Positions 17,836 through 36,861 of a stretch of 64,000 nucleotides of DNA are shown here, in pieces. The notes under the pieces are model-generated. The model saw nothing but the letters and a program-made list of their open reading frames with translations. It did no database searches and was not told where the DNA came from. Both the position numbers and the translations under genes were made by a program. Origin of the DNA: Cyclobacteriaceae bacterium (GTDB lineage: Bacteria; Bacteroidota; Bacteroidia; Cytophagales; Cyclobacteriaceae); NCBI GenBank assembly GCA_965243755.1, contig CBDEVW010000004.1:272053-336052 (forward strand). Reading direction: 5' to 3'. Positions within the stretch are counted from its first letter, which is position 1. Every line of letters begins with the position of its first letter.

Positions 17836-17975
17836 AATTACAATGTTTGGTTAGAAATAGATTGCAAAAAAGATGGGCTTCAAATCCCGGTTTGGAATTC
17901 GATAATATGAGACTTCCAACAAGACAGCTTTAGTTGCCTGTTTTACTTAGTGGATATGAAGCTTTATGGAGATGT

Positions 17976-18219: not shown

Positions 18220-18244
18220 AGGTGACTATCAGAAATAGTCACCT
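18220..18244 (-). terminator. Intrinsic terminator after the IscA-like gene
   Basis: AGGTGACTAT-CAGAA-ATAGTCACCT 20 nt past the stop (18264), followed on the minus strand by TTTTATATTT. Confidence 0.6.
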
Positions 18245-18263
18245 TCATATCTATTGAATAAGT

Positions 18264-20858: not shown

Positions 20859-22136
20859 CTACAATTTGAATGAAATCGGGAGTACCATTTTTGCGTTTAC
20901 CGGCTGACCAGCGATTTCACCTGGCTTCCATCCAGACATATTGGAAATCACTCTGGCTGCTTCAGTTTCAAATTTTCTGGTATAAGTGGCTTTAGTTTCA
21001 TCATCCAATGCTGTCAGGATTTTGGTTTTAATACAAGAGACATCCTTGATATTACCGGTCTTATCAATTACAAATGAGACATAAGTTTTAGCCTCCACTT
21101 TATTTTCCATGGCCATAACAGGGTACTTTATTGAACTACCCAAAGCAGCACTGAGGTTCTCAAATCCCCCGTTAAATGAAGGTGCTACATCAAATCCTTC
21201 TGTATAAACTTTGCTTTCAGTTTCTACCGGATTTTGTGTGGGAAGTTCGGTACCGTCACAACTAACGATCGCAAACACAACCGCAATTGCCAACACAGGA
21301 ATGATATACCTGATTGGGTTCATTTCATTGGTTTTCTTTTTCATCATTTTAATTCGTTTTAAAGTAATAGATTTATAAAACCCAATTGGATTATTTGAAG
21401 GGCTTCCAAAATGGTTGCCCAGGCTTAAGCCAACATTTGAAAGTGTCTGATTCACCAGTAGATTGATGTATTTGCCAGAATCCAAATACGCAATGACCCC
21501 TTGATCTGCCTGATATTCGTGAACTAATTTTAGCGCATTTGAATATAAGTGCACCATGGGGTGGAACCAGAAGATCGTTTTAACCATTTCCAGGATGATT
21601 AAATCAATACCATGTTTAAGTCGAACATGAACATATTCATGGGCCAGAACTTGTTTTTGATCATCCTCATTTAATGATTCAGCATTAAAGAAAATTGCAT
21701 TTTGAAATGTGAATGTACCAAGATCTCTTTGCATCAGATATAAATCTGCATCGTTGTACTTTTTTCTTACAGATTCATATTTCAATAATCGTAACCGGTA
21801 CAGTTGATACAGCAATTTGGTGGTGACCAGGAGTAATCCTACACCATAAATCCACCAGCAAATCTCACCAACAATTTCACCAGGCATAGGGGAGGTATTG
21901 CCCAAACTATTCACCACGATTTCATCCAAACTTACTTCAGGTGATAAGGAAATCTCACCTACCCGAATGCCAGATAAACTGATCAATGGGAATAAGCAGC
22001 AAAGCAGTAAACTACCAACCAAATAAATCCTGACAAATTGAAACCTGGTTTCATTACGCAAAAACAGTAGATAAACTACATAGCAGATGGCTAACCCAAG
22101 TGTAAGTTCCAGGATATAGTTTAGTACACTAGTCAT
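20859..22136 (-). CDS. BlaR1/M56-family membrane metallopeptidase fused to a TonB-type C-terminal domain
   Basis: 425 aa with N-terminal TM helices and the HEXXH motif in LAHEYVHVRLKH. The C-terminal ~90 aa (..KTYVSFVIDKTGNIKDV..GWKPGEIAGQPVNAKMVLPISFKL) is TonB-C-like. Overlaps the upstream BlaI gene by 8 nt. Confidence 0.85.
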   Translation of the reverse strand: MTSVLNYILELTLGLAICYVVYLLFLRNETRFQFVRIYLVGSLLLCCLFPLISLSGIRVGEISLSPEVSLDEIVVNSLGNTSPMPGEIVGEICWWIYGVGLLLVTTKLLYQLYRLRLLKYESVRKKYNDADLYLMQRDLGTFTFQNAIFFNAESLNEDDQKQVLAHEYVHVRLKHGIDLIILEMVKTIFWFHPMVHLYSNALKLVHEYQADQGVIAYLDSGKYINLLVNQTLSNVGLSLGNHFGSPSNNPIGFYKSITLKRIKMMKKKTNEMNPIRYIIPVLAIAVVFAIVSCDGTELPTQNPVETESKVYTEGFDVAPSFNGGFENLSAALGSSIKYPVMAMENKVEAKTYVSFVIDKTGNIKDVSCIKTKILTALDDETKATYTRKFETEAARVISNMSGWKPGEIAGQPVNAKMVLPISFKL

Positions 22137-22518
22137 TGTTCTCCTCCTTTAATTCATCTTTTACTTCATTTAGCAGTTCATCCAATTCGGTGATGTCCAT
22201 GTTGTGTTCTTTCGCAAAAAACGAAACCATCTTCTGGAATGAGCCACTGAAATAATCGGAAACCAGGTTTTTCATGAAGAAACTCCTGTATTCATCCTTT
22301 CCTATAATGGGGTAGTACTCATGACTTTTTCCATAAGATTTAAATCCAACGAATTCTTTCTTAACCAGAATTCTGACAATAGTGGAGACCGTATTGTATG
22401 CAGGTTTTGGGGAAGGCATTTTATCTATAATGTCTTTCACAAATCCTTTCTCAATTTCCCACAGTATTTTCATTATCTGCTGTTCGGCCTTAGTAAGCTC
22501 CTTCATGGATTCTAACAT
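22129..22518 (-). CDS. BlaI/MecI/CopY-family transcriptional repressor
   Basis: 129 aa. Winged-helix N-terminus LTKAEQQIMKILWE...AYNTVSTIVRILVKKEFV. Confidence 0.9.
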   Translation of the reverse strand: MLESMKELTKAEQQIMKILWEIEKGFVKDIIDKMPSPKPAYNTVSTIVRILVKKEFVGFKSYGKSHEYYPIIGKDEYRSFFMKNLVSDYFSGSFQKMVSFFAKEHNMDITELDELLNEVKDELKEENND

Positions 22519-23263: not shown

Positions 23264-23905
23264 ATGAGTTTTGGTTCCACCAAAGTTCATATCATGTTCA
23301 AAGAAGAATTCAAAAGCTCATGGTTAGTTGAATCCCGACTACCAACAAAACACGGTTTGTTTGATGTATTAGCCTTTAAAAGCGAGTTTCATACGTTCCC
23401 TCATATTGTTTTGAAGAAAGGTGATATTTCTTCGAAAGAAATCATTGATGTTCGCATTCACTCTGAATGCATGACCGGAGACGTATTTTCTTCATTGAGA
23501 TGTGAATGCGGTGATCAACTTGATTTTTCAATGAACTGGATTCAAAATCATGGTGGCTTATTAATCTATCTACGGCAGGAAGGCAGGGGAATTGGTCTGG
23601 TAAACAAACTGAAGGCTTATAATTTACAGGACAAAGGACTGAATACTAAAGAAGCCAATTTAACATTGGGATTTCACAGTGATCTACGAACATATGAAGT
23701 GGCCGTAGACATATTAAGGTTCCTTAAGGTGGGTAAAATACGGTTGCTAACCAACAATCCTGAAAAAATTGATGCTTTTAAAGATTCTGGGGTAACGATA
23801 ATTGATAGAATTCCTATTGAAATATCACCATCTGCAGAAAACTTAAAGTATCTTAAAACAAAAAAGGTGGAAATGGGACACCTGCTGACCAAACTAAATG
23901 ACTGA
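23264..23905 (+). CDS. ribA: GTP cyclohydrolase II (stand-alone, not fused to RibB)
   Basis: 213 aa: RIHSECMTGDVFSSLRCECGDQL (zinc Cys triad region), YLRQEGRGIGLVNKLKAYNLQD, DLRTYEVAVDILRFLKV..IRLLTNNP. Confidence 0.9.
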   Translation: MSFGSTKVHIMFKEEFKSSWLVESRLPTKHGLFDVLAFKSEFHTFPHIVLKKGDISSKEIIDVRIHSECMTGDVFSSLRCECGDQLDFSMNWIQNHGGLLIYLRQEGRGIGLVNKLKAYNLQDKGLNTKEANLTLGFHSDLRTYEVAVDILRFLKVGKIRLLTNNPEKIDAFKDSGVTIIDRIPIEISPSAENLKYLKTKKVEMGHLLTKLND

Positions 23906-23907
23906 TT

Positions 23908-24843
23908 ATGATTTGGGATTTATTAGTAAGAATAAGAAATGTATTAGAAAAGCAAAGTAAACCCATTGACTATATTTCAGTAACTGGTTCTTTAAATTCG
24001 TATGAAATTTCTTTTGATATTACAGATAGGCCATGTCTGCTGGTTATAGTATTTGAGCAAAAAGATATTACACTAAATACGGCGTTATTTATAGCTGAAA
24101 CTCCACTAAAAGTTCTTTGTTTAAAAAAAGGCAACCTAACCAGCGACCAACTTGCTGAGTTACAAATGTACCTACCATATGCGCTCATTCCGTACTTCGC
24201 CAGGAAACTCAATAAATGTTTTGCAATCTCACACTTTGCGCAAACGCTTGATGGTAAAATAGCGTCGATCTCAGGAGACAGCAAATGGATAGGAAATGAA
24301 GAAAATCTTATTCACGCACACAAAATGAGGGCGCTGTGTGATGGTGTATTAATTGGTTCCAAAACACTGGAAATAGATAATCCCAGACTAAATGTAAGGC
24401 ATGTTAAAGGTGAAGATCCGATTAAAATAATTCTTGGAGGCGATTCCCTTGATTTGACCATGTTCAATGCGATAGATGAAAAATCAATTGTTATTTGTCA
24501 TAATCATTACACATTACAGGATCAGCGGTTTAAAAAGATTAACCTCAACAGCAATTCGCAATATGATCCCAGAGAATTGTTGCGGCAGCTGTATTCTTTA
24601 GGGATCCAATCTATCTATATTGAAGGAGGTTCATTTACCACTTCGAAATTTTTAAAGATGGAATCCTTAGATCAGATCCAAATCCATATCTCCGCGAAAA
24701 TACTTGGATCTGGGACCGCTTCATTTCAGTTCTCAGGTATTTCCAGTATGGCCGAGGCACTCGAATTTGAAGATGCTGAATTTGTGTCTGTAGGTGATGA
24801 AATTATGTTTATAGGAAATCGAAAAGTTAATGGAGATTCTTGA
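23908..24843 (+). CDS. RibD-C-terminal-type (DHFR-fold) pyrimidine reductase with ~100-aa N-terminal extension and no deaminase domain
   Basis: 311 aa. Residues ~100-311 read HFAQTLDGKIASISGDSKWIGNEENLIHAHKMRALCDGVLIGSKTLEIDNPRLNVR ... SIYIEGGSFTTSKFL. No CDA-type H/C-A-E ... PCxxC motif is visible. Confidence 0.75.
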   Translation: MIWDLLVRIRNVLEKQSKPIDYISVTGSLNSYEISFDITDRPCLLVIVFEQKDITLNTALFIAETPLKVLCLKKGNLTSDQLAELQMYLPYALIPYFARKLNKCFAISHFAQTLDGKIASISGDSKWIGNEENLIHAHKMRALCDGVLIGSKTLEIDNPRLNVRHVKGEDPIKIILGGDSLDLTMFNAIDEKSIVICHNHYTLQDQRFKKINLNSNSQYDPRELLRQLYSLGIQSIYIEGGSFTTSKFLKMESLDQIQIHISAKILGSGTASFQFSGISSMAEALEFEDAEFVSVGDEIMFIGNRKVNGDS

Positions 24844-25774
24844 GTTATGGCATAATAATCAGGAGAGTTGGATTCAGTCATCCCACTTTGAGATTGGAGA
24901 TGATGATCAATTAATTGACCCTTGCTATTCTATGATCAGTCAGGGAACCGAACGTAGGATGATCACTGGTCAAATCAATGGTAATTTGGCAGAAAGAATG
25001 AAAGTGCCTTATATGAAAGGTCATTTTAGTAAGAATTTCACCTATGGCTATTCAATGGTAGGCAGACTAATTAATTCTCCTGAAACAATGGTGCACTTAA
25101 TGTGCCCTCATCAAACTCCGGTATACGCCAGGGCCAAAGATTACACAAGCCTTCCTGAAAATTTTGACCCAAAACTAGGCACGCTAATAAGTAATATGGA
25201 GACTGCTGTTAATGCTGTTTGGGACGCCGAAATCGAGCTGGGAGATAAAGTCCTCGTGATTGGGTTTGGGATAATTGGTGCACTAACTAGCCTAATTCTA
25301 GCTCGATGTGTTGGTGTTGACCTTGATGTAGTGGAAAAAGATGCGCATCGGAGAGCCACTGCATGTAGAATGGGCTTGAACGCAACTGAGCATATAAATT
25401 ATTCTGAATATGATGTAGTAATTAATGCTGCAGGGAACAAGCAAGCATTAAATGATGCGACCAAATCGGTAAGAAAAGAAGGAAAAATCATTGAATTGAG
25501 TTGGTATGGTAATGAAGGTGTTTTACTTGATTTGGGGGATGACTTTCATCATAAAAGATTAAGAATTATTTCGTCCCAGGTAAGCACAATTCCTTATAAA
25601 AAACAGCCTACATGGGATTTCAGGAAACGCAAACAGTTGGTCATTAAATTATTGCAAGAGATTAATCCGGTCGAACTTATTGAAACGGAGGTTGATTTTA
25701 ATGATACCCCTGGTTTCTATCAGCAACTCAGGATAGCTTCTCCGCCTGCAATTGGGATAATAATTAAATATTGA
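24830..25774 (+). CDS. Medium-chain dehydrogenase/reductase-like protein (BchC-like, no obvious structural-zinc Cys cluster)
   Basis: 314 aa: SMISQGTERRMITGQ, Rossmann motif VLVIGFGIIGALTSLIL, VVINAAGN. Confidence 0.7.
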   Translation: MEILELWHNNQESWIQSSHFEIGDDDQLIDPCYSMISQGTERRMITGQINGNLAERMKVPYMKGHFSKNFTYGYSMVGRLINSPETMVHLMCPHQTPVYARAKDYTSLPENFDPKLGTLISNMETAVNAVWDAEIELGDKVLVIGFGIIGALTSLILARCVGVDLDVVEKDAHRRATACRMGLNATEHINYSEYDVVINAAGNKQALNDATKSVRKEGKIIELSWYGNEGVLLDLGDDFHHKRLRIISSQVSTIPYKKQPTWDFRKRKQLVIKLLQEINPVELIETEVDFNDTPGFYQQLRIASPPAIGIIIKY

Positions 25775-25775
25775 A

Positions 25776-26150
25776 ATGTTTACAGTAACAGTTAAGGATC
25801 ATATTATGATCGCACACTCACTTCCTGATCCGTTTTTTGGTCCTGCTGCTAAAATGCATGGCGCAACTTATGTGGTAGAAGTTACTTTCAAAAGGAAAGA
25901 ACTCAATCAATTTAATGTGGTCATTGACATTGGTGAAGCAGGAAAAATTACGAATGAGGTGCTGGGGAAATTGGCTTATCAAAATTTGGATGAACTGCCG
26001 GAATTTCAGGGAGTCCTTACTACAACAGAGTTTTTGGCAAAGTACATCCACGACTCTATCATGGAAAATGTTGATAAGGAATTAGCATTAAAAGTTGAAT
26101 TGTTTGAATCACACATTGCTTCTGCTGCTTATGAATCAGCCTGGCCATGA
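25776..26150 (+). CDS. 6-pyruvoyl-tetrahydropterin synthase / QueD-family (T-fold) protein, non-canonical active site
   Basis: 124 aa. IMIAHSL ... KMHGATYVVEV ... VVIDIGEAGKITNEVLGKLAYQNLDELPEF..TTTEFLAKYI follows the PTPS/QueD motif order. The HGH triad reads HGA, and no Cys precedes it. Confidence 0.75.
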   Translation: MFTVTVKDHIMIAHSLPDPFFGPAAKMHGATYVVEVTFKRKELNQFNVVIDIGEAGKITNEVLGKLAYQNLDELPEFQGVLTTTEFLAKYIHDSIMENVDKELALKVELFESHIASAAYESAWP

Positions 26151-27135
26151 ACCGAAAAAGAAACTGATTATTCTGACTACTCACTTTGGAGAGGGGTTTT
26201 CTGGAGGGTCGGATGCAACTGTTGAAGTTTTTTCCAGAATTCAGGAGAATTTCGATCAGATCATAGTTGTAGGTAACCAACTTGGAAACCATACCATTCA
26301 AAACCTCGAATTCTTGGCCTATAAAAACTGGATTCATGCCTTTTTGATTATTAGAAAACATGCAAAGGAAAACCCATTGTATTATGGTGATTTCTATAAT
26401 AGCATCATCTATTGGCTAGCTGGGGTACAATATTACTTTACCTATCATGATAATTGGCCGGAACAGGGTGCATTGGGAGGCTGGGAAAGAATTCGGTCTG
26501 TCTGGTTTACCATCTTGTATGTATTAATTTTAAAGGGAGCAAAAGTCGCTTTTACAGTATCGGCCTTTAAGTACTCTTTTGTGCAAAAGCACAGTGGATC
26601 TGCCAAATTAATTCCCAATGGGTTTTCTTCAAAAATTTGCGAAACAATTGATTATTCCAGGTCCACCAGTAAAATCCTGATGATTGGTAATATCGACAAA
26701 AGAAAGTATGCCCTTGCAGATAAAGTATTCAATGAAATCGATTCAAGTAAGGACTTGAGCATTGAGATATTCGGAAGAATCATAGACAAAACATTGGCAA
26801 GAAAGTTATCGAAGTATCCTTTTGTCACGCTGAAGGGGTATTCGAGGGATATCCCCATCGCAAACTATCGATTATTGCTACACACTTCGGTCAGTGAAAG
26901 TTTCGGAATGATATTTTGTGAAGCAGCACATAACAGGATTCCGGTACTAACTTTTAATGCAGGGGGAGCCAGGGAATTGATTCCTCCAACGAATGGTGTC
27001 TTAATTGAAAAATATGATGTAAAGAAAATGGCCAGATCTCTGCTGGATTTCCCTGGTCTGGAAGTAGATCCTGCAGCGGTTGAGCAATATAGCTGGGAAA
27101 ATACTTCACGAAAATACCTGGAGCATTTAGTATGA
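26131..27135 (+). CDS. Glycosyltransferase, GT-B fold (family 4-like)
   Basis: The track ORF starts at TTG 26095; the ATG at 26131 (MNQPGHEPKKKLIILTTHF) is preferred. The C-terminal half reads LLLHTSVSESFGMIFCEAAHNRIPVLTFNAGGARELI (the E-x7-E type motif of GT4). Confidence 0.8.
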   Translation: MNQPGHEPKKKLIILTTHFGEGFSGGSDATVEVFSRIQENFDQIIVVGNQLGNHTIQNLEFLAYKNWIHAFLIIRKHAKENPLYYGDFYNSIIYWLAGVQYYFTYHDNWPEQGALGGWERIRSVWFTILYVLILKGAKVAFTVSAFKYSFVQKHSGSAKLIPNGFSSKICETIDYSRSTSKILMIGNIDKRKYALADKVFNEIDSSKDLSIEIFGRIIDKTLARKLSKYPFVTLKGYSRDIPIANYRLLLHTSVSESFGMIFCEAAHNRIPVLTFNAGGARELIPPTNGVLIEKYDVKKMARSLLDFPGLEVDPAAVEQYSWENTSRKYLEHLV

Positions 27136-27680
27136 TCACTTATATCATTATATTCATTTATTTGAGTTTTGCTTTGGACTTTATCGTTTGGCCGGTTGCC
27201 AGTGAAGCGTCTACGGGTCAGTTAATTTCAGGGCGAGCAAGTTTGATCAACAAAATAATGTTGGTCGTTGTTTATGCAGTTAATCTTATTTTCTTCAGTT
27301 TTCCCCTGTTGCTGGCCATTGGATGTTTAATTGATGGAGCTTATAATGCGGGATTGCTTTCCTGGTTAGGCATACCCATCGCTCTGATGGGTAGAGTAAT
27401 TTCAATTCTTGGCACATTGGCACTTAGAAACTCTCCAGGAGACTCTCCAGTGACGCATTCAATTTTCAGATATACCAGAAACCCAATTACACTGGGGATT
27501 CACCTTACCAGTATTGGCTTGATTTTGTGTTTTAACCATTGGTATTTGTGGGCTGGCTTATTGTTTTCAGTAGTTAACCTTCATGTTAAAATTAAAATTG
27601 AGGAGCGTAACCTGTTTCAGGTCTTTAAGGAGTCCTACACTCTTTACTTTCAAAAAACCCCTAGGTATTTGATATGGTAG
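27132..27680 (+). CDS. Membrane methyltransferase, ICMT / phospholipid-methyltransferase (PEMT) family
   Basis: 182 aa with 4-5 TM helices. IFRYTRNPITLGIHL matches the RHPxYxG-type motif of this family. ATGA overlap with the upstream GT gene. Confidence 0.7.
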   Translation: MITYIIIFIYLSFALDFIVWPVASEASTGQLISGRASLINKIMLVVVYAVNLIFFSFPLLLAIGCLIDGAYNAGLLSWLGIPIALMGRVISILGTLALRNSPGDSPVTHSIFRYTRNPITLGIHLTSIGLILCFNHWYLWAGLLFSVVNLHVKIKIEERNLFQVFKESYTLYFQKTPRYLIW

Positions 27681-28354
27681 ATCAACAATTACAAATAAAA
27701 CACTGGTTTGATGAGACATACCGGAAAAGAGGGTTTCAGTACCTCAGGCCTGTTCAGGCATACGAGATATTTAAATCTGTGCTTTTACCTGGAAAAGGAA
27801 AGGTGCATTTAGATGTAGGGTGCGGTCCAGGTTTATTGTTGGAGGTTTTTTTGAAAAATGGAGCCATTTGCCACGGACTGGATATATCACAGGAAGCCAT
27901 TGAGTTGTGCAAAAGGAACTGTCCGGAAGCTGTTGCCATAGAAGGAAATGCTGAAAATTTACCTTATAAAGATCAAACATTTGACTCAATCAGTTGTATT
28001 GGATCCCTGGAAAGAATGATTGACCGTAATCGTGTCTTGATGGAAAAAAGACGGGTGTTGAAAGATAGCGGTGAGGTATGCATTATGGTTAGAAATTCAG
28101 AAAATATTACATGGAAGTACTTTTGGAAACCCCTGGGTTTATACAACCGCAAGGGGCATCAGGATGCAAATAACCTACAGCAGTGGAAGTCTTTGTTCGA
28201 ACAGAGTGGATTTGAAATACTGAGGGTTTACCCTGATCATTGGCCATATTACAGACTGATACAATGGTTCAAACCAGACTATAGTAGAATCAGAAGGTTT
28301 CCCTTCAGTATTGAACTTGCCTATGAGTTTATATTTCACTTAAGAAAGAAATGA
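27674..28354 (+). CDS. Class I SAM-dependent methyltransferase
   Basis: 226 aa. Motif I HLDVGCGPGLL, post-I GLDIS, then FDSISCIGSLERM. Confidence 0.85.
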   Translation: MVDQQLQIKHWFDETYRKRGFQYLRPVQAYEIFKSVLLPGKGKVHLDVGCGPGLLLEVFLKNGAICHGLDISQEAIELCKRNCPEAVAIEGNAENLPYKDQTFDSISCIGSLERMIDRNRVLMEKRRVLKDSGEVCIMVRNSENITWKYFWKPLGLYNRKGHQDANNLQQWKSLFEQSGFEILRVYPDHWPYYRLIQWFKPDYSRIRRFPFSIELAYEFIFHLRKK

Positions 28355-29142
28355 GCAAGGTTGCCAATATATATAATGTGCTGTTCGAGATGGAAAGCAA
28401 AAAGAGGAATTTGCCGTACCCTATTCACAAGAGACTGGCAATACCTGATTCTGGCAACCTGATCAATTTTCTGTTGGAAAAAATAAATTTTCAAAATGAT
28501 ATAAATATTCTTGATGCCGGTTGTGGGACAGGAAATACACTTTTTCAGTTAGCGGCTCTATATAGGATCAATGGAATTGGAATATCCTTGAGTGAGGCCG
28601 AAATAAAAAGAGCACAATCTTATCTGGATAAATATTCAAATGGCTCCCGGCTTTCGTTTGAGCAAAAAAATTTTGAATCCAGAATTACAGGTAAGTATCA
28701 AAAAATAATTGCAATTGAATCATTAAAACATGCTGATTCAATCAAAAAAGCCTTGTTTAATTTTAATGAGGTACTTGATGAAGAAGGAGAAATCATAATA
28801 GCAGATGACTTTACTGATTCTGAAGATAAGCTAATATATAAACAAAAAGAGTGTTGGGGGGCTCCCTCGTTTACTTCAATCTCGAGATATACCGATATCC
28901 TCAGTTCTTTAGCTGAATACCAGTACACTATTTATGATGTCACAAGATATGTATTGCAGAAACCCCGGTTGGTGCTAATGGTTTTAACTTCATTCATGGC
29001 TTTATTATTGCCGCTCACCTTTGGGAAATCCCGAACCAAGATGTCCATATTGTATGGAGGGTTAATACTGGAATATTTATATCACCAGAAAAAAGTAAGC
29101 TATGTTGTATTAATTGCTAAAAAGAAGCGCAATGAAAAATGA
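28351..29142 (+). CDS. Class I SAM-dependent methyltransferase with hydrophobic C-terminal segment
   Basis: 263 aa. Motif I ILDAGCGTGNTL, then GIGISLSEAEI. The C-terminal LVLMVLTSFMALLLPLTF is TM-like. Confidence 0.8.
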   Translation: MSKVANIYNVLFEMESKKRNLPYPIHKRLAIPDSGNLINFLLEKINFQNDINILDAGCGTGNTLFQLAALYRINGIGISLSEAEIKRAQSYLDKYSNGSRLSFEQKNFESRITGKYQKIIAIESLKHADSIKKALFNFNEVLDEEGEIIIADDFTDSEDKLIYKQKECWGAPSFTSISRYTDILSSLAEYQYTIYDVTRYVLQKPRLVLMVLTSFMALLLPLTFGKSRTKMSILYGGLILEYLYHQKKVSYVVLIAKKKRNEK

Positions 29143-29503
29143 AAAAGTATCGAAAGAACGATTTATAGCCCTGAAGATTTACTTTGACCGGGCCCGGATG
29201 TACCTTGGATATATTAATTTCTTCTTACTTAATGTGGTTATTATCAATTCATTTGACAATCCCAACTATAGGGATTTGGTAGAGAGCTACAAATGGATCA
29301 TTATGCCTGTTTTATTTCTGGTATACACCATTGGCTTAATTGGTGTGGGGTATTTGGACACAAAACTTGGTTTACGCAGAGAAGAAATGAGGAATAACTC
29401 CCTAATGAACCCGGTGCTTACTGACCTGGTAGAAACGACAAAACGCATAGAGGAGAAAGTCAACTCATTAGAAAGTTTAAAAGAAAACAAATTACAATCT
29501 TGA
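29132..29503 (+). CDS. Small 2-TM membrane protein
   Basis: ATG at 29132 (MKNEKVSKERF); the track start at 29114 is TTG. Two hydrophobic helices are followed by a C-terminal amphipathic/coiled segment. No family recognised. Confidence 0.5.
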   Translation: MKNEKVSKERFIALKIYFDRARMYLGYINFFLLNVVIINSFDNPNYRDLVESYKWIIMPVLFLVYTIGLIGVGYLDTKLGLRREEMRNNSLMNPVLTDLVETTKRIEEKVNSLESLKENKLQS

Positions 29504-30243
29504 TAAGGGTACATGCATCGTTTCATAAGTGCATGACCATGTATTTCATTAGGGTTATGTCAGGAATATACAATACAGTTCCGTTTACCACTCCTTCATT
29601 TCGACACTTCGAGAGCATACAAGGTGAATTCTATAATAATCTCAATAACTATCGAGTACTGTCAACCAATGGATTTGCAGTTGATCCAGACAAGTTTCCT
29701 GATGGTGAAGATTATCGAATTACAAGATTTGTCAGGGATCCGAGGGATTTAATCATTTCGGGATACTTCTATCACTTGCGTGGTGCTGAACCATGGTTTA
29801 GATTTAAACATGTTGACCCTAAATATTGGGAACCTATCAATGGCAATGTGCCAGACAAAATGCCACCAGACATTTCCTTTGCAGAATATCTGCAGTCCAT
29901 ATCCAAGGAAGAGGGCCTAATAGCCGAGATTGAGTTTAGGAAATTTCATTTTCAATCGATAAGAGAATGGAAAATTGATGACAGAATTAGGTTATTCAGG
30001 TATGAAGATATCCTGGGAAATGAGGAACAAAAGTTTGATGAGTTACTTAGGTTTTATGAGGTTTCCCCGATTGAGAGAAAACTGGGTGTGTGGTTAGCCC
30101 GCAGGCAAAAATATGTCAATGGACAAAAACGGAAACACATTAGAAAACCTGAGCCCGGTCAATGGCAGGAGCACTTTACCCCAAGGGTGTTGAAATATTT
30201 CAATAAGCATTATGAAGACGTTTTAAAGATTCTCAATTACTAA
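29500..30243 (+). CDS. Sulfotransferase-family-like protein (start uncertain)
   Basis: RFVRDPRDLIISGYFYH matches the 3'-phosphate-binding RDPRD..S.Y motif of PAPS sulfotransferases. No clear PKxGTT 5'-PSB loop. The track start is TTG at 29500; the first ATG codons are at 29533 and 29539. Confidence 0.5.
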   Translation: MIRVHASFHKCMTMYFIRVMSGIYNTVPFTTPSFRHFESIQGEFYNNLNNYRVLSTNGFAVDPDKFPDGEDYRITRFVRDPRDLIISGYFYHLRGAEPWFRFKHVDPKYWEPINGNVPDKMPPDISFAEYLQSISKEEGLIAEIEFRKFHFQSIREWKIDDRIRLFRYEDILGNEEQKFDELLRFYEVSPIERKLGVWLARRQKYVNGQKRKHIRKPEPGQWQEHFTPRVLKYFNKHYEDVLKILNY

Positions 30244-30965
30244 CTTCTCTTCATAATTATACTTCCAGCTGTGGAGGAAAGAAATGATAAAATAACTAAA
30301 CCACCTGAGCTATATACCAACCATTTAATAACTTCATGCTCAAATATAAATGGTAGTAATAATGAGATGAAAAATAGTACTGCAATGGTACTTCTTATTT
30401 TTTTGCTGAGAAACTCTTGTCCGCTATTTGGAATCCAGAAAAATAAAATTTCATTGATATATTTAAATGCTCCGGGGATTAGTATAAATCCAGATAGTCT
30501 ATCCTCTTCAAAATGAATCCAGGAGAGAGTCAATACCAGAAAGCTATCTACTTCCATGTCAAACTTCTCACCTACTTCGGAGGTTTCTCTAAATTTTCTG
30601 GCTATTAAACCATCCAACCCATCCAGTAAAACTGCCAACGAAAAGCCAATAAATAAGGATAAAGTTCCTAACGCATTCTTATAATAACACGTTAGTAAGA
30701 TCAGAATTATTCTTACCATTGTAATGCTATTGGCAAAACCAAATCTGTTTTTGTTTCTAAAAAAATGAGGGATGTTCCAGAAGAAAAAGATGAACATTAA
30801 TGCAGTGAATAAAATCCAGTGATTTTGAATCAAATTGCCTCGGATTAAAATTACAAGACAAAGCAGCTGTATCACAGCCATTGACATACACCACCTCCTA
30901 TAAAATGTATTAAATCTCCAGTCCATTTGGTTCATAATCAGGAGGAATACTGTTCGGTCCACCAT
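30240..30965 (-). CDS. CDP-alcohol phosphatidyltransferase-family membrane protein
   Basis: DGLDGLIARKFRETSEVGEKFDMEVD fits D-x2-D-G-x2-A-R-x8-G-x3-D-x3-D, and the protein has multiple TM helices. Alternative in-frame ATG starts lie at 30935, 30926 and 30887. Confidence 0.8.
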   Translation of the reverse strand: MVDRTVFLLIMNQMDWRFNTFYRRWCMSMAVIQLLCLVILIRGNLIQNHWILFTALMFIFFFWNIPHFFRNKNRFGFANSITMVRIILILLTCYYKNALGTLSLFIGFSLAVLLDGLDGLIARKFRETSEVGEKFDMEVDSFLVLTLSWIHFEEDRLSGFILIPGAFKYINEILFFWIPNSGQEFLSKKIRSTIAVLFFISLLLPFIFEHEVIKWLVYSSGGLVILSFLSSTAGSIIMKRS

Positions 30966-32622
30966 AAACCCTGATGTACTCCCTTAAAAATATTGAATAT
31001 AATGACTGATGAGTGATTGTTGTACTGGAATTTTCCAGTTCCTCTTGAAAGCCATACGCCTTAAACCCATCGAGGAATCGCTTGTCCTTTGCAATAATGT
31101 GTACTGGCGTGGCAACACCGTGCTCTTCGGTATTAGCCAATACTGGAGGTTGATGATCACCAATTATTAAAAAGATATCACTGTCCTTACCTTGATTTCT
31201 GATAAAATGATCAATTACCTTTAATTGGTAATTGATTGATTTGATGTACTGATCTTGCTTAGGCTGTTTTAAAAATGTGTTGTGAACCCTGGACTTATAT
31301 TCAACATTATTCAACTGCTTCCAGTCATCTTTTATTTCTGGATCAAAAAATGGAGAATGGGAGTTTTGGGTTAAAAAAAACAGTGTGTAAGGTTCCTCAT
31401 TGCTTTTTCTGATAATATCAATGCATTTGTTTAGGGAATATTGATCCGGTGGACTAGCACCAAAACCATAAACATCTCCTTTGTAGTCTAATTTGTCGTT
31501 TAAGATCCAACGATCTATAGCATAAAATTCTCTCATCTGGTCATAGGGGATATTTACACCCAGAATTGGGTTGATAGGATTCAGGTTATAGTTTGTATAA
31601 CCTAACCTTCTGAATAGCCTAAGTAAATTGTTGCTGGAGTGGGCACATTTATCATATAAGAGATTTTGATAATAGCTTTGGTTTGGCATATTAATACCGT
31701 ATAAGAATGAACTATACGCTAACCAGGACTGACCACCTGTAGTTGGGGATTTGCTATATGTGCTTAATGTTACCCAGTTCTGTGAAGACATGTTTGCAAG
31801 AAAGTTCCTATAGTTGGAAAAGGCTACATGTTTATTTTCACCCTGAAAATAGTATGAGCCGTATGACTCAATAAATAAAAAATGAATATTAGGAGTGCTA
31901 ATAGGGTTTTCGACAAGAATTACAGATCTGGCTTCATGAATTTTTTTCCCTAATTCGCTGCTTGCTAATCTGTAATTGTTATAACTCCTGTAAATATTCA
32001 ATGCAAACTCTACCATTGTAAAATGATATCTTAATTTAATATCAGATGGGTAAGGAAAATGAAAACCAAACTTTTGAATTGATCTCAATAAGGGGACAGA
32101 CCAGATAGTTGCTATAGTTACAAATATTGTGTTAGGCTTCAAGGAAAACGAAAATGGTATAAACCATTTGACCAGAGAGAAAGTAATAAGCGATAATAAA
32201 AAAGCTCCGATAATTCCAATAAAAAGGTATATTCTTGAATCTTTCCAGACTATCGCAAGACCAGTTTTAAGGAGTTTTAATTCATTAATTAAGTCGGGTT
32301 CCTGGTGGTACAGCGCTCTAAGCAAGTACTGATGGGTATTGAAAATCAAAATAAATAAGAATAAAATTGTTATTGGAATTTCCAGATTAGACAAATCCTT
32401 GAACCTGGAAATAATTAGAATAATTGAGATTTCAACACTGTATCTGAAGCAATCCTGATTTGCACTTATGATCAATCCAGATTTTTTGAATTTTGTCCAT
32501 TCAGAGATATATGGTAAAAAATAGGATTTTTTAAAATGGACGATGTAGTTAATGACGAAATTCATGGAATTTAATACCAGGAAAATCAGCCAAAAAGTGA
32601 GCTCGTTAAAAACATTATGCAT
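30910..32622 (-). CDS. Membrane-anchored alkaline-phosphatase-superfamily transferase (LtaS / sulfatase-like)
   Basis: 570 aa with ~5 N-terminal TM helices. The extracytoplasmic domain carries HFLFIESYGSY (metal site), SPTTGGQSW (candidate Thr nucleophile) and FLIIGDHQPP. Confidence 0.65.
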   Translation of the reverse strand: MHNVFNELTFWLIFLVLNSMNFVINYIVHFKKSYFLPYISEWTKFKKSGLIISANQDCFRYSVEISIILIISRFKDLSNLEIPITILFLFILIFNTHQYLLRALYHQEPDLINELKLLKTGLAIVWKDSRIYLFIGIIGAFLLSLITFSLVKWFIPFSFSLKPNTIFVTIATIWSVPLLRSIQKFGFHFPYPSDIKLRYHFTMVEFALNIYRSYNNYRLASSELGKKIHEARSVILVENPISTPNIHFLFIESYGSYYFQGENKHVAFSNYRNFLANMSSQNWVTLSTYSKSPTTGGQSWLAYSSFLYGINMPNQSYYQNLLYDKCAHSSNNLLRLFRRLGYTNYNLNPINPILGVNIPYDQMREFYAIDRWILNDKLDYKGDVYGFGASPPDQYSLNKCIDIIRKSNEEPYTLFFLTQNSHSPFFDPEIKDDWKQLNNVEYKSRVHNTFLKQPKQDQYIKSINYQLKVIDHFIRNQGKDSDIFLIIGDHQPPVLANTEEHGVATPVHIIAKDKRFLDGFKAYGFQEELENSSTTITHQSLYSIFLREYIRVYGGPNSIPPDYEPNGLEI

Positions 32623-32836: not shown

Positions 32837-35800
32837 ATGAAACAACTAGCTCAAATAACAACATTTTTGATGTTGCTCATGTGGGTTTGCCTAGGGGATT
32901 TAGCATCCGCTCCTACACCCACAAGATATGAGTTCCATCATATTGAGGTCGATGATGGCCTTCCAAACGGGGTTGTCCGTACTGTTTATCAAGATCGCAA
33001 AGGCTTCATTTGGATAGGGACAGATGCCGGATTGGTAAGATACGATGGCTATAGCTTCGAAATTTTCCTGAATGAATTTATGGACCGGGTATATTCTCCC
33101 GGAAATATTATTCTTGACCTTGCAGAGGATCAGAACGGTCGCTTGATTGCCGGAACTCAGGCGGGCTTGATTATCCTGGATACAAATACCGAAAAGGTAA
33201 AGCATTACAAACCCATTGAAGGGGACTCCACTTCACTATCTGACCGATGGGTAGAAAATATCCTGGTGGACAGCAAGAACAGAATATGGGCTGCCACGAA
33301 TCAGGGATTACATCTCCTCAACGAGGATGAACAGGGGTTTACCAAATTTCCATCTTTTTCCAGCGCTAAGATATTCACCGGAGCAATCGCCATGTCTTTA
33401 ATTGAAGATGAAGAGGGATTCATATGGCTCACATCAAACAAAGGCTTTCTTTACAAATTCAACCCTGATGATGGATCTGTACAGAAATTTGCATTTCCCG
33501 AAAACCAAAAGCTTGAAGTAATCAGCCTTCTCAAAGACAACTATGGGACAATTTGGCTAGGCACACTTGGACAGGGAATTTGGACATTCAATACTACGAC
33601 CAAAGCGTTTAGCCCCTTCCAGGTCGAATGGAAAAACGGCAACCTTAAGGTAGTCAGAGATTTTCTTGAAGCGAGCGACGGAAGAATATGGATGGCCCTT
33701 GACGGAAATGGTATAGCAATGCATGATCCAGTCACGAAGGAAACAAGCTATCTTCGTTTTGACCCATACATGGAAAATGGCCTCAACACCGACCAATTGT
33801 ATAGTTTATATGAAGATAGGGATGGTAATATTTGGGCAGGAACCTTTAGGAAGGGCATCAACCTATTTTCCGTCAACAAAAAGCAGTTCATCACTTACAG
33901 AGCGATTGCCGGGAAAAGTAGAAGTTTGTCCAACAACTCCGTGATGTCCATGTTGGAGAATGATGATGGTAGGATTTGGGTGGCAACAGACGGTGGTGGC
34001 CTTGATTTGTTTGACCCACGAACCGAAGAGTTTTTGCACTTTAAATACTCAGAGAAAGATCCATATTCCATCAGTTCCAATGTCATTACCGCAGTAGCAA
34101 GTGATCATAACGGCTTGATATGGCTTGGGACCTGGCAGGGGGGAGCTAACTTGTTCAATCCTAAAACCGGAAGATCCAAAAGGTTTTATCACGATCCGGA
34201 TGATGCAAAGACGATTGCCGCCAACGACGTATGGTCAGCGCTTGTTGACTCTGAAAACAATATTTGGTTGGGGACTTTCAATGCCGGTCTTGATCGATAC
34301 GATCCTGTTAAAAATGTGTTCATCCACTATACCGGAGGAGATAAAGACCCCTCCATATTGGGTTGTATCCTGTTTAAAATGTTGGAAGATGATGATGGTA
34401 CACTTTGGATTGCCACAGATAAGGGGTTATTTCAGTTTGATCCTAAATCCGAACGGTTTACTCGATACGTCAATGACAAAGACGATCCCAATTCAATTCC
34501 CGGAAACGATGTGAGAGCCATATATTTTGACGAAAATGGAACTTTCTGGATTGGTACCAATCAGGGCATTTGCCAGTTCGATCGGGAAAAGCGACATTTT
34601 GTATCCCTTGATATCAACGATCAGCTAAAAAATAAGGCAATCTATGGGCTGTTAAGTGATAAAAATAATAACCTCTGGATAGGTTCCAAAGGTGGGCTTG
34701 CCAGGTATAATCTGATTACCAGGGAACTGCGAAATTTTGATAAATCTGACGGGATCCAGGGCGCTAACTTTAATTCCAATTCTTCCATATATACCAAAGA
34801 TGGTTTAATGTTTTTTGGAGGAGTCAATGGAATGACCATGTTTGACCCATTAAATATACGAGACAACCAGATTGTGCCTCCTGTCTACATCAGATCCCTC
34901 TATATATTTGATCAGGAAATTGGAATTGGGGATACATTGGACGGCAGGGTATTACTGCCTCAGGCACTCTATACAATGCCCACCATTGAGCTGGAATACA
35001 GGCAAAATTTTAAGGTGACCTTCGCCTCTCTGGACTATACTTCATCACTTAAGAATCAGTACAGGTACAAACTTGAAGGATATAATTCGGACTGGGTCTA
35101 CACTTCATCGAATAACAGAATTGCATCATATATGAATCTGGACCCGGGTGAATATCGGCTAATAGTTGGCGGTACAAATAGCGATGGGGTTTGGAGTCCT
35201 CACGAACATTCCATCAATATCAATATCAAACCTCCATGGTACATGATCGGTTGGGTGAGGGTACTGGCATTGGTCTTTTTGGTTGGATCGTTGGTGATAG
35301 CGTACAAGATGAGAACCAACATGTTGAAGAGAAGGAGTGTAGAACTGGCCAATCTGGTTCGTGAAAAAACCCGTGAAATCAGAGATAAAAATGAAAGGCT
35401 GGAGTCACTTAATCAGGATCTCATTGAAAGTCTGCATCAAAAGAGTAAAACACTGAAGCAGTTAAGACAAACTCAAAATCAATTGATTGAGTCTGAGAAG
35501 ATGGCCTCCGTGGGGCATCTCGTTGCGGGTCTTGCCCATGAGCTCAATAACCCGATGAGTTTCATTAAGGGAGTGGTTGAGCCCATCAAGATGGATGTGA
35601 TGGAGTTGAAATCTCTATTGCCTGAAGAGCTAAAAGTGGCTCATCAGGAGCTGTTAAGTGAACTGCAGATTCTGACCAGTGGAATGGAGGAGGGAGTTGT
35701 AAAAGCTTCTACAATCATCAAAAACCTAATGGACATCTCTCCACTCAACGCCAACAAAGAAGAGTCTAAAATATGTGTAAAAGAGCTGATCTCAAATGCC

Positions 35801-36220
35801 TCCAAATCAATCAACTTACCTCCGGATATAGTTAATGTGTCTTTGCCTTCCAGCGAAGAAATTACGATTCTGGGTAATCAGATGGAATTAAATCAGGCAT
35901 TGGCCAATGTGATCAGAAACTCTGTTGATGCCATACCCATGGGTGCAATCGGACAAATCAATATAAAGGGATACAGGGAAAATGGTCATGTAATTATTGA
36001 AGTAGAGGACAATGGATTTGGGATGGATAAAAGTACAGTTTCTCAGGTATTTGATCCTTTCTTTACTACAAAAGAACCTGGAAAAGGAAAAGGCCTTGGA
36101 CTATACATAGCCTACGGAATTGTTAAAAAACATGGAGGAGAGATATTTGTTACCAGCCAGCAGGGGATTGGTACTAAATTTACTCTGATGCTACCTCCGG
36201 CACCAGAAAACACCGATTAA
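32837..36220 (+). CDS. Sensor histidine kinase with periplasmic two-component-regulator propeller repeats + Y_Y_Y domain
   Basis: 1127 aa with ~14 repeats of the ..D..G.IW.GT..GL..(Y/F)D type. YRYKLEGYNSDWVY (Y_Y_Y), a TM helix, a coiled coil, H-box SVGHLVAGLAHELNNP and ATPase motifs DNGFGM and GKGKGLGLY. No receiver or AraC domain. Confidence 0.9.
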   Translation: MKQLAQITTFLMLLMWVCLGDLASAPTPTRYEFHHIEVDDGLPNGVVRTVYQDRKGFIWIGTDAGLVRYDGYSFEIFLNEFMDRVYSPGNIILDLAEDQNGRLIAGTQAGLIILDTNTEKVKHYKPIEGDSTSLSDRWVENILVDSKNRIWAATNQGLHLLNEDEQGFTKFPSFSSAKIFTGAIAMSLIEDEEGFIWLTSNKGFLYKFNPDDGSVQKFAFPENQKLEVISLLKDNYGTIWLGTLGQGIWTFNTTTKAFSPFQVEWKNGNLKVVRDFLEASDGRIWMALDGNGIAMHDPVTKETSYLRFDPYMENGLNTDQLYSLYEDRDGNIWAGTFRKGINLFSVNKKQFITYRAIAGKSRSLSNNSVMSMLENDDGRIWVATDGGGLDLFDPRTEEFLHFKYSEKDPYSISSNVITAVASDHNGLIWLGTWQGGANLFNPKTGRSKRFYHDPDDAKTIAANDVWSALVDSENNIWLGTFNAGLDRYDPVKNVFIHYTGGDKDPSILGCILFKMLEDDDGTLWIATDKGLFQFDPKSERFTRYVNDKDDPNSIPGNDVRAIYFDENGTFWIGTNQGICQFDREKRHFVSLDINDQLKNKAIYGLLSDKNNNLWIGSKGGLARYNLITRELRNFDKSDGIQGANFNSNSSIYTKDGLMFFGGVNGMTMFDPLNIRDNQIVPPVYIRSLYIFDQEIGIGDTLDGRVLLPQALYTMPTIELEYRQNFKVTFASLDYTSSLKNQYRYKLEGYNSDWVYTSSNNRIASYMNLDPGEYRLIVGGTNSDGVWSPHEHSININIKPPWYMIGWVRVLALVFLVGSLVIAYKMRTNMLKRRSVELANLVREKTREIRDKNERLESLNQDLIESLHQKSKTLKQLRQTQNQLIESEKMASVGHLVAGLAHELNNPMSFIKGVVEPIKMDVMELKSLLPEELKVAHQELLSELQILTSGMEEGVVKASTIIKNLMDISPLNANKEESKICVKELISNASKSINLPPDIVNVSLPSSEEITILGNQMELNQALANVIRNSVDAIPMGAIGQINIKGYRENGHVIIEVEDNGFGMDKSTVSQVFDPFFTTKEPGKGKGLGLYIAYGIVKKHGGEIFVTSQQGIGTKFTLMLPPAPENTD

Positions 36221-36861
36221 TCTGCCAGTCCATTTTCAATGGCATACCTCACCAACCCTGCAGAGTTCTTTACCTGAAGTTTGCTGATGAGGTTTTTTTT
36301 ATGGGTATGAACTGTGTGTGTGCTGATAAACAAAGTGTCCGCTATTTCTTTGGCGGTATATTCCTCCGCCAGGTACCGAAGGATTTCTTTTTCTCTGCGA
36401 CTCAATTTTACGTTCAAAGTTTGGCTTTCGCCATGGAATACCTGGTTCATGTAGGATTCTTTTACTTCCCTCGAAAAATATTTATTGCCGGCATACAATG
36501 TTTCCAACGCTTCCATGAGCTCTCCTTTTTCGGCATTCTTCAACAAATATCCATCCACCTCTTTTTTGATAAGCTTCTCTATTTTATCAGGGTCATTGTG
36601 TGTGCTGAGGATTAACGTTTTAATGTGAGGATAATCTTTCTTGATGATACTATGAAGCGCTATGCCATCCATCTGTGGCATGCTGATGTCTGTAACCACA
36701 ATATCAGGTTTGATATGGTCCAGTTGGTCCAGCAGTTCTTTGGCTGAAGTCGCCTTACAAGCAATGTTGATATGTTGATCCCTTTCAAAAATAGCAGATA
36801 AGCCATCCAGAAACATGGCATGGTCATCTACCAGCGCTATGTTAATGATTTCATTACTCAT
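36217..36861 (-). CDS. NarL/FixJ (LuxR)-family response regulator
   Basis: 214 aa. Receiver domain (IALVDDH, VVTDISMP, K in ..DGYLLK). LuxR HTH REKEILRYLAEEYTAKEIADTLFISTHTVHTHKKNL. Confidence 0.9.
   Translation of the reverse strand: MSNEIINIALVDDHAMFLDGLSAIFERDQHINIACKATSAKELLDQLDHIKPDIVVTDISMPQMDGIALHSIIKKDYPHIKTLILSTHNDPDKIEKLIKKEVDGYLLKNAEKGELMEALETLYAGNKYFSREVKESYMNQVFHGESQTLNVKLSRREKEILRYLAEEYTAKEIADTLFISTHTVHTHKKNLISKLQVKNSAGLVRYAIENGLAD

Follow-up and report, generated by a model that had tools for sequence, protein, structure and literature searches.

What pathway does a stand-alone GTP cyclohydrolase II (GCH II) feed when it heads an operon that is not a riboflavin operon? The question is raised by a locus at positions 23264-32622 of a 64,000-nucleotide (nt) stretch of DNA from a Cyclobacteriaceae bacterium (assembly GCA_965243755.1, contig CBDEVW010000004.1; the whole stretch is referred to as the window), in which ten tightly packed plus-strand genes, from GCH II to a sulfotransferase, and two convergent genes for membrane enzymes lie together. 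The locus may be the Bacteroidota form of a conserved pathway centred on PTPS-IV, a subfamily of T-fold proteins related to 6-pyruvoyltetrahydropterin synthase (PTPS), in which GTP would be diverted from the riboflavin route into a decorated lipid head group; this reading is held tentatively, at close to an even chance. The more general scheme, in which the product would be non-riboflavin, GTP-derived, glycosylated and lipid-linked, appears probable on the sequence evidence.

Relation to riboflavin synthesis

None of the 12 proteins of the locus has a RibD deaminase, RibB, RibH or RibE domain, and these were not among the strongest NCBIfam matches listed for the 29 other open reading frames (ORFs) of the window. 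An Rfam scan of the whole window gave one tRNA and no riboswitch, i.e. no flavin mononucleotide (FMN) riboswitch, and exactly 53 nt lie between the upstream DUF3109 gene and ribA, as the original prediction had counted. The ORFs of that prediction were all reproduced at the same coordinates in an ORF scan, its domain calls were all confirmed by Pfam and NCBIfam searches, and its view that this is not a riboflavin operon stands.

Conservation and gene order

Three of the plus-strand genes belong to the part of the locus that is conserved most widely:

24830..25774, plus strand: zinc-less dehydrogenase of the MDR (medium-chain dehydrogenase/reductase) family, polyol/secondary-alcohol type; weak ADH_zinc_N match, best named family BchC (46 bits)
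25776..26150, plus strand: PTPS-IV (SCO6650-type) T-fold protein; PF01242, 2.7e-24 over 117/121 positions
26131..27135, plus strand: GT4 glycosyltransferase; PF00534 and PF13692, ~2e-10; ORF open from TTG 26095

The genome scan, with one genome per species, resulted in at least 586 confirmed stretches, and the best match was only 73% identical. The best 80 of these stretches, which were profiled by taxon, span four phyla (Bacteroidota, Actinomycetota, Proteobacteria and Myxococcota) and include Cytophagales, Flavobacteriales, Saprospiraceae, Bacteroidales, Alpha- and Gammaproteobacteria, Polyangiales and many Actinomycetota. Altogether 85 loci were searched with the window and Streptomyces proteins, occurrence being defined as within 10 kb of the T-fold gene; in high-GC loci ORFs were called from stop to stop, and some coordinates are approximate. 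The universal core consists of MDR, T-fold protein, GT4 and a methyltransferase, with GCH II and the RibD_C reductase as frequent feeders. The MDR gene is directly upstream of the T-fold gene in 70/78 loci, and MDR, T-fold and GT4 are collinear in 56/72 loci, these and the following co-occurrence counts not being phylogenetically independent. Among loci with full flanks the occurrences were as follows:

GCH II: Bacteroidota 9/13, Proteobacteria/Myxococcota 3/11, Actinomycetota 28/36
RibD_C: Bacteroidota 12/13, Proteobacteria/Myxococcota 7/11, Actinomycetota 3/36
CDP-alcohol phosphatidyltransferase (CDP-OH): Bacteroidota 11/13, Proteobacteria/Myxococcota 1/11, Actinomycetota 34/36
LtaS-like enzyme: Bacteroidota 9/13, Proteobacteria/Myxococcota 1/11, Actinomycetota 2/36

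All ten plus-strand genes were found in the same order in Flexithrix dorotheae, together with an extra sulfotransferase and the CDP-OH/LtaS-like pair. In Catalinimonas and in a Sediminicola metagenome-assembled genome (MAG), GCH II, RibD_C, MDR, T-fold, GT4 and CDP-OH are kept and the tailoring genes differ. The Streptomyces locus has a divergent CDP-OH gene, MDR, T-fold, GT4, a class I methyltransferase, a flippase-like membrane protein, a creatininase-family gene and a GCH II of the Met type; no further recurrent gene was found in the Actinomycetota neighbourhoods (23 loci). The gene set thus recurs in many genomes, more than by chance, and the locus is a conserved biosynthetic unit, as had been proposed. 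Synteny was found to be wide for the five-gene core, whereas the full ten-gene order is confined to close relatives such as Flexithrix. The label of an orphan operon had to be dropped: the locus belongs to the PTPS-IV / SCO6650-SCO6655 cluster family, which has already been noted.

The same family is far closer to the locus than toxoflavin synthesis, formerly put forward as the best-known precedent. A toxoflavin-like azapteridine, or another diffusible antibiotic from GCH II and RibD chemistry, would account for the combination of GCH II, a RibD-like enzyme and S-adenosylmethionine (SAM) methyltransferases, as in tox clusters. The other tox genes have no counterparts here, T-fold, MDR, GT4 and CDP-OH are foreign to tox clusters, and the cluster is vertically widespread over four phyla instead of sporadic, which leaves such a product hardly credible.

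Two loci under Proteobacteria labels, L011 (uncultured Thalassobius sp.) and L030 (Granulosicoccaceae), contain Bacteroidota-type clusters. Identity to the T-fold protein of the window is 70% in L011 and 54% in L030, and Bacteroidota-type GT4, membrane methyltransferase (PEMT) and RibD_C are present. They look like cases of MAG mis-binning or recent horizontal transfer.

Entry enzymes

The first two genes of the operon encode the enzymes that would act on GTP and its product:

23264..23905, plus strand: stand-alone GTP cyclohydrolase II; PF00925, 2.6e-57; NF001591, 248.8 bits
23908..24843, plus strand: RibD_C-type pyrimidine reductase; PF01872, 4.6e-34 over residues 107-300

The GCH II keeps the equivalents of Cys54, Cys65, Cys67, Arg49, Glu92, Arg94, Lys101, Tyr105 and Arg128. 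Judged by these residues it should be catalytically complete and should form 2,5-diamino-6-ribosylamino-4(3H)-pyrimidinone 5'-phosphate (DARPP).

In an alignment of the clusters' GCH II proteins with E. coli RibA, all zinc cysteines and catalytic arginines were retained, and position 105 divided the clusters in two. A Tyr105-type GCH II was present in 21 clusters, i.e. in all 15 Bacteroidota loci with GCH II, three Alphaproteobacteria, Ornithinimicrobium and two Actinoplanes, and none of the 21 has a creatininase-family gene; such a gene accompanies 31 of the 33 GCH II proteins with Met, His, Gln or Leu at this position, and the two GCH II proteins without one come from short contigs (8 and 12 kb). 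The sequences are related, hence this covariation is not statistical proof. The window conforms to it, with Tyr in the motif KAYNLQD and no creatininase homolog. Spoonamore reportedly found in 2006 that SCO6655 stops at FAPy (2-amino-5-formylamino-6-ribosylamino-4(3H)-pyrimidinone 5'-phosphate) because its Tyr105 is Met. The creatininase-family protein of Streptomyces gave a weak score on the model of ArfB, the archaeal FAPy deformylase. Because the residue at position 105 covaries with the gene for this putative deformylase, DARPP is suggested as the required entry metabolite; in the simplest reading all versions of the pathway need deformylated DARPP, made in one step or in two.

The second protein was predicted to be a RibD-C-type reductase without a deaminase domain, in agreement with the PF01872 match, which covers only residues 107-300. 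It ranks as an ordinary member of the reductase family, and its best PDB match was the M. jannaschii reductase 2AZN (5.7e-21). A cluster-specific N-terminal extension of ~100 amino acids (aa; 23908-24210, plus strand) had no family match, and its motifs W..LL and (L)YLP(Y), the latter YLPY in the window, are common to orthologs in other phyla. They recur, for example, in the Streptomyces (L058) and Steroidobacteraceae (L075) orthologs. The single-sequence AlphaFold2 (AF2) model of this protein was unusable (pLDDT 35.6).

GCH II, a creatininase-type deformylase and RibD_C parallel the archaeal ArfA/ArfB/ArfC steps, and on that ground the module could be a paralogous early branch of riboflavin or F420 (FO) synthesis which supplies a primary-cofactor precursor. 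Many Actinomycetota are generally known to make F420, and PTPS-IV is said to be involved in F420 synthesis in a review that cites unpublished work (PMC5041015). No F420, folate or riboflavin gene, however, recurs near 21 Bacteroidota-type, 15 proteobacterial or myxobacterial and 23 actinobacterial loci, and the invariant partners, GT4 and methyltransferases, are needed by neither cofactor pathway. With the deaminase, RibB, RibH, RibE and an FMN riboswitch missing, and Bacteroidota not being generally known as F420 producers, a cofactor branch is very improbable.

Of the 85 loci, a single one, L042 in a Defluviicoccus MAG, has a FolE (GCH I) homolog nearby (17722-18420, plus strand); its cluster has RibD_C and a creatininase-family gene and no GCH II within 10 kb. 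GCH I as an alternative entry was set aside, one locus in 85 being too few.

MDR dehydrogenase and T-fold protein

The search with the MDR protein returned 372 homologs, nearly all from Cytophagales and other Bacteroidota. In our own motif alignment Ser37, Tyr74 and Ser75 are invariant where zinc MDRs carry Cys, His and Glu. The AF2 model of the protein (pLDDT 94.4) was matched by Foldseek to sorbitol, threonine, butanediol, idonate and arabinitol dehydrogenases and to TarJ ribulose-5-phosphate reductase, with TM-scores of ~0.75-0.78, and this modelled structure would suit an enzyme that dehydrogenates a secondary alcohol group in a polyol or polyol phosphate.

The T-fold protein was ~51% identical over residues 1-122 to SCO6650 of Streptomyces coelicolor (PDB 3D7J, E-value 8.8e-33), whereas true PTPS enzymes matched it at only 2e-4. 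The motif FGPAAKMHGA replaces the CxxxHGH of QueD and PTPS, orthologs having FGPAQ.MHGA. In an alignment of Bacteroidota and Streptomyces proteins the invariant residues were D8, H9, H14, F21-G22, A24, H28-G29-A30, T82, T84, E85 and E111. Aligned to rat and human PTPS and SCO6650, the protein has Ala at the third zinc His and at the catalytic Cys, and Ala-Tyr for the Asp-His of the PTPS triad, while the TTE segment and the equivalent of Glu133 (Glu111) are kept. The roles of these residues (TTE as pterin anchor, Glu133, the zinc histidines, and the catalytic Cys and Asp-His) are presumed from the PTPS literature. Because of the match to SCO6650, the T-fold protein is assigned to the PTPS-IV subfamily, as a predicted catalytically stripped member with the pterin-anchoring residues retained. 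In 2008 Spoonamore et al. reportedly found SCO6650 to be without PTPS activity and without zinc. A study of neighbourhood networks gives FGPAQ as the signature of PTPS-IV and places PF00925 and PF01872 in its neighbourhoods (PMC5445326).

The representative library (50% identity) also contained proteins with two to four PTPS-IV-like domains in tandem (P0362-P0364, P0368, P0376, P0391, P0440 and P0491; 223-855 aa). P0491 has only 223 aa, and two proteins of ~830-855 aa carry a long region without a Pfam match. In P0375, P0382, P0393, P0399, P0409, P0421, P0461, P0473, P0474 and others, a T-fold domain (first ~100 residues) appears to be fused to a GT4. Should these fusions be genuine, the T-fold protein would be physically coupled to the glycosyltransferase. 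Neither these nor the apparent MDR-T-fold fusions of the library occur in any of the 85 genome loci, and they were not used as evidence; in high-GC genes, frameshift read-through is the simplest explanation of both kinds, and the T-fold-GT4 fusions probably arose in this way in metagenome assemblies.

Glycosyltransferase and tailoring enzymes

The best named relatives of the window GT4, all weak, were GlcNAc-PG synthase, BshA, PimB and TarM, enzymes that each add a sugar to a polyol phosphate or a phospholipid. In Streptomyces the GT4 has its closest relative in MshA, which transfers GlcNAc to inositol phosphate. No known pteridine glycosyltransferase was among the PDB sequence matches of either protein. 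Downstream of GT4 the operon continues with five tailoring or membrane genes:

27132..27680, plus strand: PEMT/ICMT-type integral-membrane methyltransferase; PF04191, 3.7e-7, and PF04140; four hydrophobic segments
27674..28354, plus strand: class I SAM methyltransferase; Methyltransf_11, 1.7e-20; orthologs in Bacteroidota loci
28351..29142, plus strand: class I SAM methyltransferase, CMAS-like; Methyltransf_31, 2.4e-12, and CMAS, 3.6e-11; C-terminal hydrophobic segment 207-225
29132..29503, plus strand: small membrane protein; no Pfam or NCBIfam match; ORF open from TTG 29114
29500..30243, plus strand: sulfotransferase; Sulfotransfer_1 PF00685, 6.5e-11

The PEMT-type methyltransferase was found in 13/24 Bacteroidota-type loci. 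Orthologs of the small membrane protein are limited to the closest relatives (L001, i.e. Flexithrix, L011 and L014); two transmembrane segments had been ascribed to it, of which a simple hydropathy scan passes one only, residues 61-79. Sulfotransferases of three Pfam families are the commonest accessory genes in Bacteroidota loci, where FkbM methyltransferases and Polysacc_synt flippases are further extras; in Ekhidna, three sulfotransferases and a flippase lie between the methyltransferases and CDP-OH.

Membrane module

The two convergent genes encode membrane enzymes:

30240..30965, minus strand: CDP-alcohol phosphatidyltransferase of a distinct subfamily; CDP-OH_P_transf PF01066, 1.1e-13
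30910..32622, minus strand: LtaS/EptA-like membrane phospho-head-group transferase of the alkaline-phosphatase superfamily; Sulfatase PF00884, 1.5e-8, residues 274-496

The CDP-alcohol transferase has the full motif D115GxxAR(x8)G(x3)D(x3)D and five hydrophobic segments, and it lies far below the cut-offs of PgsA, PssA, AIP-synthase and every curated equivalog model. Its gene is co-located with the T-fold gene in 18/24 Bacteroidota-type and 42/45 Actinomycetota loci. The LtaS-like protein of 570 aa has N-terminal hydrophobic segments and no NCBIfam match. Its motifs FIESYG (250-255), PTTGGQS (293-299) and GDHQPP (488-493) are putative counterparts, judged by motif and not by structural alignment, of E255, T300, D475 and H476 of LtaS, its Glu/Thr/Asp-His set of metal ligands and nucleophile. 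The gene is present in 14/24 Bacteroidota-type loci and in few loci of other phyla.

The form of the membrane or export module differs by phylum. It comprises CDP-OH, the LtaS-like enzyme and Polysacc_synt flippases in Bacteroidota, and CDP-OH with a flippase-like membrane protein in Actinomycetota. In Alphaproteobacteria CDP-OH is usually absent, at least five loci have a membrane GT2 protein of 600-700 aa (Glyco_trans_2_3) next to the cluster, and recurrent neighbours include GT-C proteins (PMT_2, YfhO) and FkbM methyltransferases. In every phylum the soluble module adjoins machinery for lipid-bound substrates or export.

This bears on the possibility that MDR, T-fold protein, GT4 and methyltransferase make a soluble pterin or pyrimidine glycoside, comparable to the pteridine glycosides of cyanobacteria and Chlorobium as a cofactor, sunscreen or signal, while the adjacent membrane enzymes use another substrate. 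The order of T-fold protein, reductase/dehydrogenase and glycosyltransferase mirrors that of PTPS, sepiapterin reductase and pteridine glycosyltransferase, and most alphaproteobacterial clusters are without a CDP-OH or LtaS-like gene. The Chlorobium enzyme CtPGT uses UDP-GlcNAc (PMC5683033). The membrane link proposed earlier proved to be real, however: CDP-OH is adjacent in 11/13 Bacteroidota and 34/36 Actinomycetota full-flank loci, and its stop overlaps the last gene of the window operon. Moreover, the Bacteroidota operon itself includes the PEMT-type integral-membrane methyltransferase, another membrane glycosyltransferase adjoins the cluster where CDP-OH is missing, and neither GT4 had a pteridine glycosyltransferase among its PDB matches. 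A soluble glycoside is accordingly improbable, and a lipid-linked product is preferred.

Proposed pathway

For the lipid-linked product, every step after GCH II is one that we infer. GCH II would make DARPP from GTP, and RibD_C would reduce it to the ribityl-5'-phosphate compound. The MDR dehydrogenase would then re-oxidise the 2'-OH of the ribityl compound, a "polyol-pathway" equivalent of the Amadori rearrangement, and the resulting 1-deoxy-ribulosylamino ketone would be the intermediate that GCH I reaches by that rearrangement. The 5-amino group could close the ring to a compound of the 7,8-dihydroneopterin 3'-phosphate type, with the T-fold protein holding the ring and assisting closure or side-chain chemistry. 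In clusters without RibD_C the T-fold protein may itself isomerise, as the T-fold enzyme GCH I does. GT4 would glycosylate the polyol phosphate, the methyltransferases and the sulfotransferase would tailor the product, and the CDP-alcohol transferase would join the head group to CDP-diacylglycerol. Once the lipid has been flipped, the LtaS/EptA-like enzyme might pass the phospho-head group to an acceptor in the envelope or polymerise it there. Entry of DARPP into pterin synthesis is known from Chlamydia, in which RibA and TrpF together form dihydroneopterin monophosphate (PMC4161248).

The specific version with a pterin ring is possible, with the balance somewhat against it. That the product forms a new class of membrane lipid, having a methylated, sulfated GTP-derived pterin glycoside as head group, a new GCH II-based route to the ring and an LtaS/EptA-like enzyme that uses it as donor, is unlikely.

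In the original prediction the product was a GTP-derived aminopyrimidine or pteridine, oxidised, glycosylated, methylated and sulfated. The class is still the best fit, whereas the emphasis on an open ring should be relaxed, a pterin route being at least as likely. Under that primary reading a ribityl- or ribosyl-diaminopyrimidine phosphate would be oxidised on its side chain, glycosylated, methylated and sulfated, and be lipid-linked or not. GCH II together with a deaminase-less RibD_C points directly to 2,5-diamino-6-ribitylamino-pyrimidinone 5'-phosphate; the nearest named relatives TarM (GT4), TarJ (MDR) and LtaS all handle ribitol- or glycerol-phosphate; and the 2-amino-4-oxopyrimidine face, recognised by the anchor residues of the T-fold protein, does not differ between the open and closed forms. 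An open ring nevertheless gives no specific role to the universally conserved pair of MDR and T-fold protein, adjacent in 70/78 loci, and cyclisation of the 2'-keto product of the MDR enzyme through the free 5-amino group would be expected, as with GCH I and the chlamydial RibA/TrpF. Such diaminopyrimidines are also generally known to be reactive and are unusual end products. An open-ring product is therefore to be doubted, though it deserves to be kept in view.

Against the proposed route through a ring-closed, lipid-linked head group stand several observations. The structural matches of the MDR enzyme are generic and do not discriminate between substrates, and the role of the T-fold protein could be binding only. 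Most Streptomyces-type clusters are without RibD_C, and because only 3/45 have it, the reduce-then-oxidise route cannot be universal; in these clusters the isomerisation would fall to the T-fold protein or a housekeeping RibD. No GCH II gene lies within 10 kb in 4/13 Bacteroidota and 8/11 proteobacterial full-flank loci. Lipid linkage is not universal either, because alphaproteobacterial clusters are mostly without CDP-OH. In the whole PTPS-IV cluster family no product has been detected: full-text literature searches with the gene combination and the SCO numbers found no paper that assigns one, and the family goes unmentioned in a 2026 review of bacterial pterins.

Junctions and flanking genes

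With ATG starts, the junctions of the operon are +2 nt (GCH II/RibD_C), -14 (RibD_C/MDR), +1 (MDR/T-fold), -20 (T-fold/GT4, ATG 26131), -4 (GT4/PEMT), -7 (PEMT/first class I methyltransferase), -4 (between the class I methyltransferases) and -11 (second methyltransferase/small membrane protein, ATG 29132). Gaps of at most 2 nt or overlaps with ATG starts, as described earlier, were thus found at the first eight junctions but not at the junction into the sulfotransferase, where an overlap of 4 nt requires TTG 29500 and the first ATG (29533) leaves a 29-nt gap. The longer, TTG-started form is supported because the Flexithrix ortholog has 247 aa and an 8-nt overlap. The convergent CDP-alcohol transferase gene shares 4 nt with the sulfotransferase gene at their stops, and the CDP-alcohol transferase and LtaS-like ORFs overlap each other. 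Neither promoter-like sites (43 vs 39.8 ± 7.7 in shuffled controls) nor terminator-like sites (15 vs 7.8 ± 3.8) were in clear excess in the scan.

The divergent sensor kinase has Reg_prop, Y_Y_Y, HisKA and HATPase domains. In the loci of Flexithrix, Catalinimonas and Sediminicola, neither this gene nor the DUF3109 neighbour is conserved with the cluster. The region 32837-38995 holds the Reg_prop/Y_Y_Y histidine kinase, which is without a receiver or helix-turn-helix domain, beside a LuxR-type response regulator, as well as a TPR/HisKA_3 kinase; in other genomes the syntenic loci do not have these regulators. Immediately before the cluster region (20859-22518, minus strand), the genes of a BlaI-type repressor (22129-22518) and of a BlaR1/M56 sensor with a TonB_C domain (20859-22136) overlap, a pair likewise not conserved with the cluster.

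Farther upstream, three mutually similar cyanophycinase-family paralogs (6513-7367, 14530-16494 and 16783-17835, all on the minus strand) flank a SusC/RagA transporter gene (11314-14340, minus strand), and matches to beta-aspartyl peptidase/asparaginase and to a YfcC-type transporter were among the 29 surveyed ORFs of the window. The region may be a locus for utilisation of cyanophycin or beta-Asp-dipeptides. The ORFs 7423-8547 and 8550-9929 (both minus strand) are adjacent tandem paralogs, with 248 bits against each other.

Implications

The PTPS-IV / SCO6650-SCO6655 module has reportedly been open since 2006-2008, with one enzyme characterised and one crystal structure solved. It is not confined to actinomycetes: at least 586 genome stretches and four phyla have the module, with a fixed core and recurrent links to enzymes for lipid carriers or export. 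What the Bacteroidota version contributes is a canonical GCH II, a reductase of its own and a CDP-alcohol transferase paired with an LtaS-like enzyme, and it therefore leads to a concrete hypothesis, a GTP-derived head group on a phospholipid. If this is true, there would be a second natural route by which pterins arise from the riboflavin branch point, common marine and soil bacteria would carry a lipid or envelope decoration not described before, and a function would be given to a T-fold subfamily that is now mislabelled QueD or PTPS in genome annotation.

Comparison with known systems

The tox clusters share GCH II, a RibD-like enzyme and SAM methyltransferases with the locus. Identity with a tox cluster was rejected, the domain content of all 12 genes including no ToxC or ToxD candidate.

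The chlamydial RibA and TrpF pair likewise enters pterin synthesis from the GCH II product DARPP and not by GCH I (PMC4161248), and was the only published precedent found for the favoured route in the literature search. A TrpF-like isomerase is not present here, isomerisation being proposed for the reductase and dehydrogenase and/or the T-fold protein, and the end product would not be folate.

The pteridine glycoside pathways of cyanobacteria and Chlorobium resemble the locus in the succession of a T-fold enzyme, an oxidoreductase and a glycosyltransferase. UDP-GlcNAc, the donor of Chlorobium CtPGT, is also the donor of the GT4 relatives MshA and BshA. Those pathways start at GCH I, whereas the entry of the window is GCH II, its T-fold protein is without the PTPS catalytic residues, an MDR replaces the short-chain dehydrogenase/reductase, and the membrane module is extra.

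The pairing of a CDP-alcohol transferase with a membrane enzyme of the alkaline-phosphatase superfamily is reminiscent of PgsA or PIP synthase with LtaS, EptA and OpgB, although the CDP-alcohol and LtaS-like proteins of the window reach no curated equivalog cut-off. We know of no precedent for a GTP-derived glycoside as a phospholipid head group.

With PTPS-IV of COG0720, the T-fold protein shares the PTPS fold, FGPA[Q/A] in place of CxxxHGH, and PF00925 and PF01872 neighbours. It differs in reading FGPAA instead of FGPAQ, and the published hint at F420 does not fit the Bacteroidota gene context.

The closest system is the SCO6648-SCO6655 cluster of S. coelicolor, which has the same T-fold subfamily, MDR, T-fold and GT4 in the same order and a class I methyltransferase, with a CDP-alcohol phosphatidyltransferase close by and a GCH II of its own, the SCO6655 paralog. 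Of the three RibA copies of S. coelicolor, one serves a purpose other than flavin synthesis (PMC13151069). In the Streptomyces GCH II, Met replaces Tyr105, and the enzyme is paired with a creatininase-type putative deformylase, and the Streptomyces clusters usually have a flippase-like membrane protein and no RibD_C. The window, in contrast, has a Tyr-type GCH II, RibD_C, a PEMT-type and a second methyltransferase, a sulfotransferase and an LtaS-like enzyme. Lacking the Streptomyces-specific pairing of a non-Tyr GCH II with a creatininase and possessing the defining core, the locus is a variant within this known cluster family.

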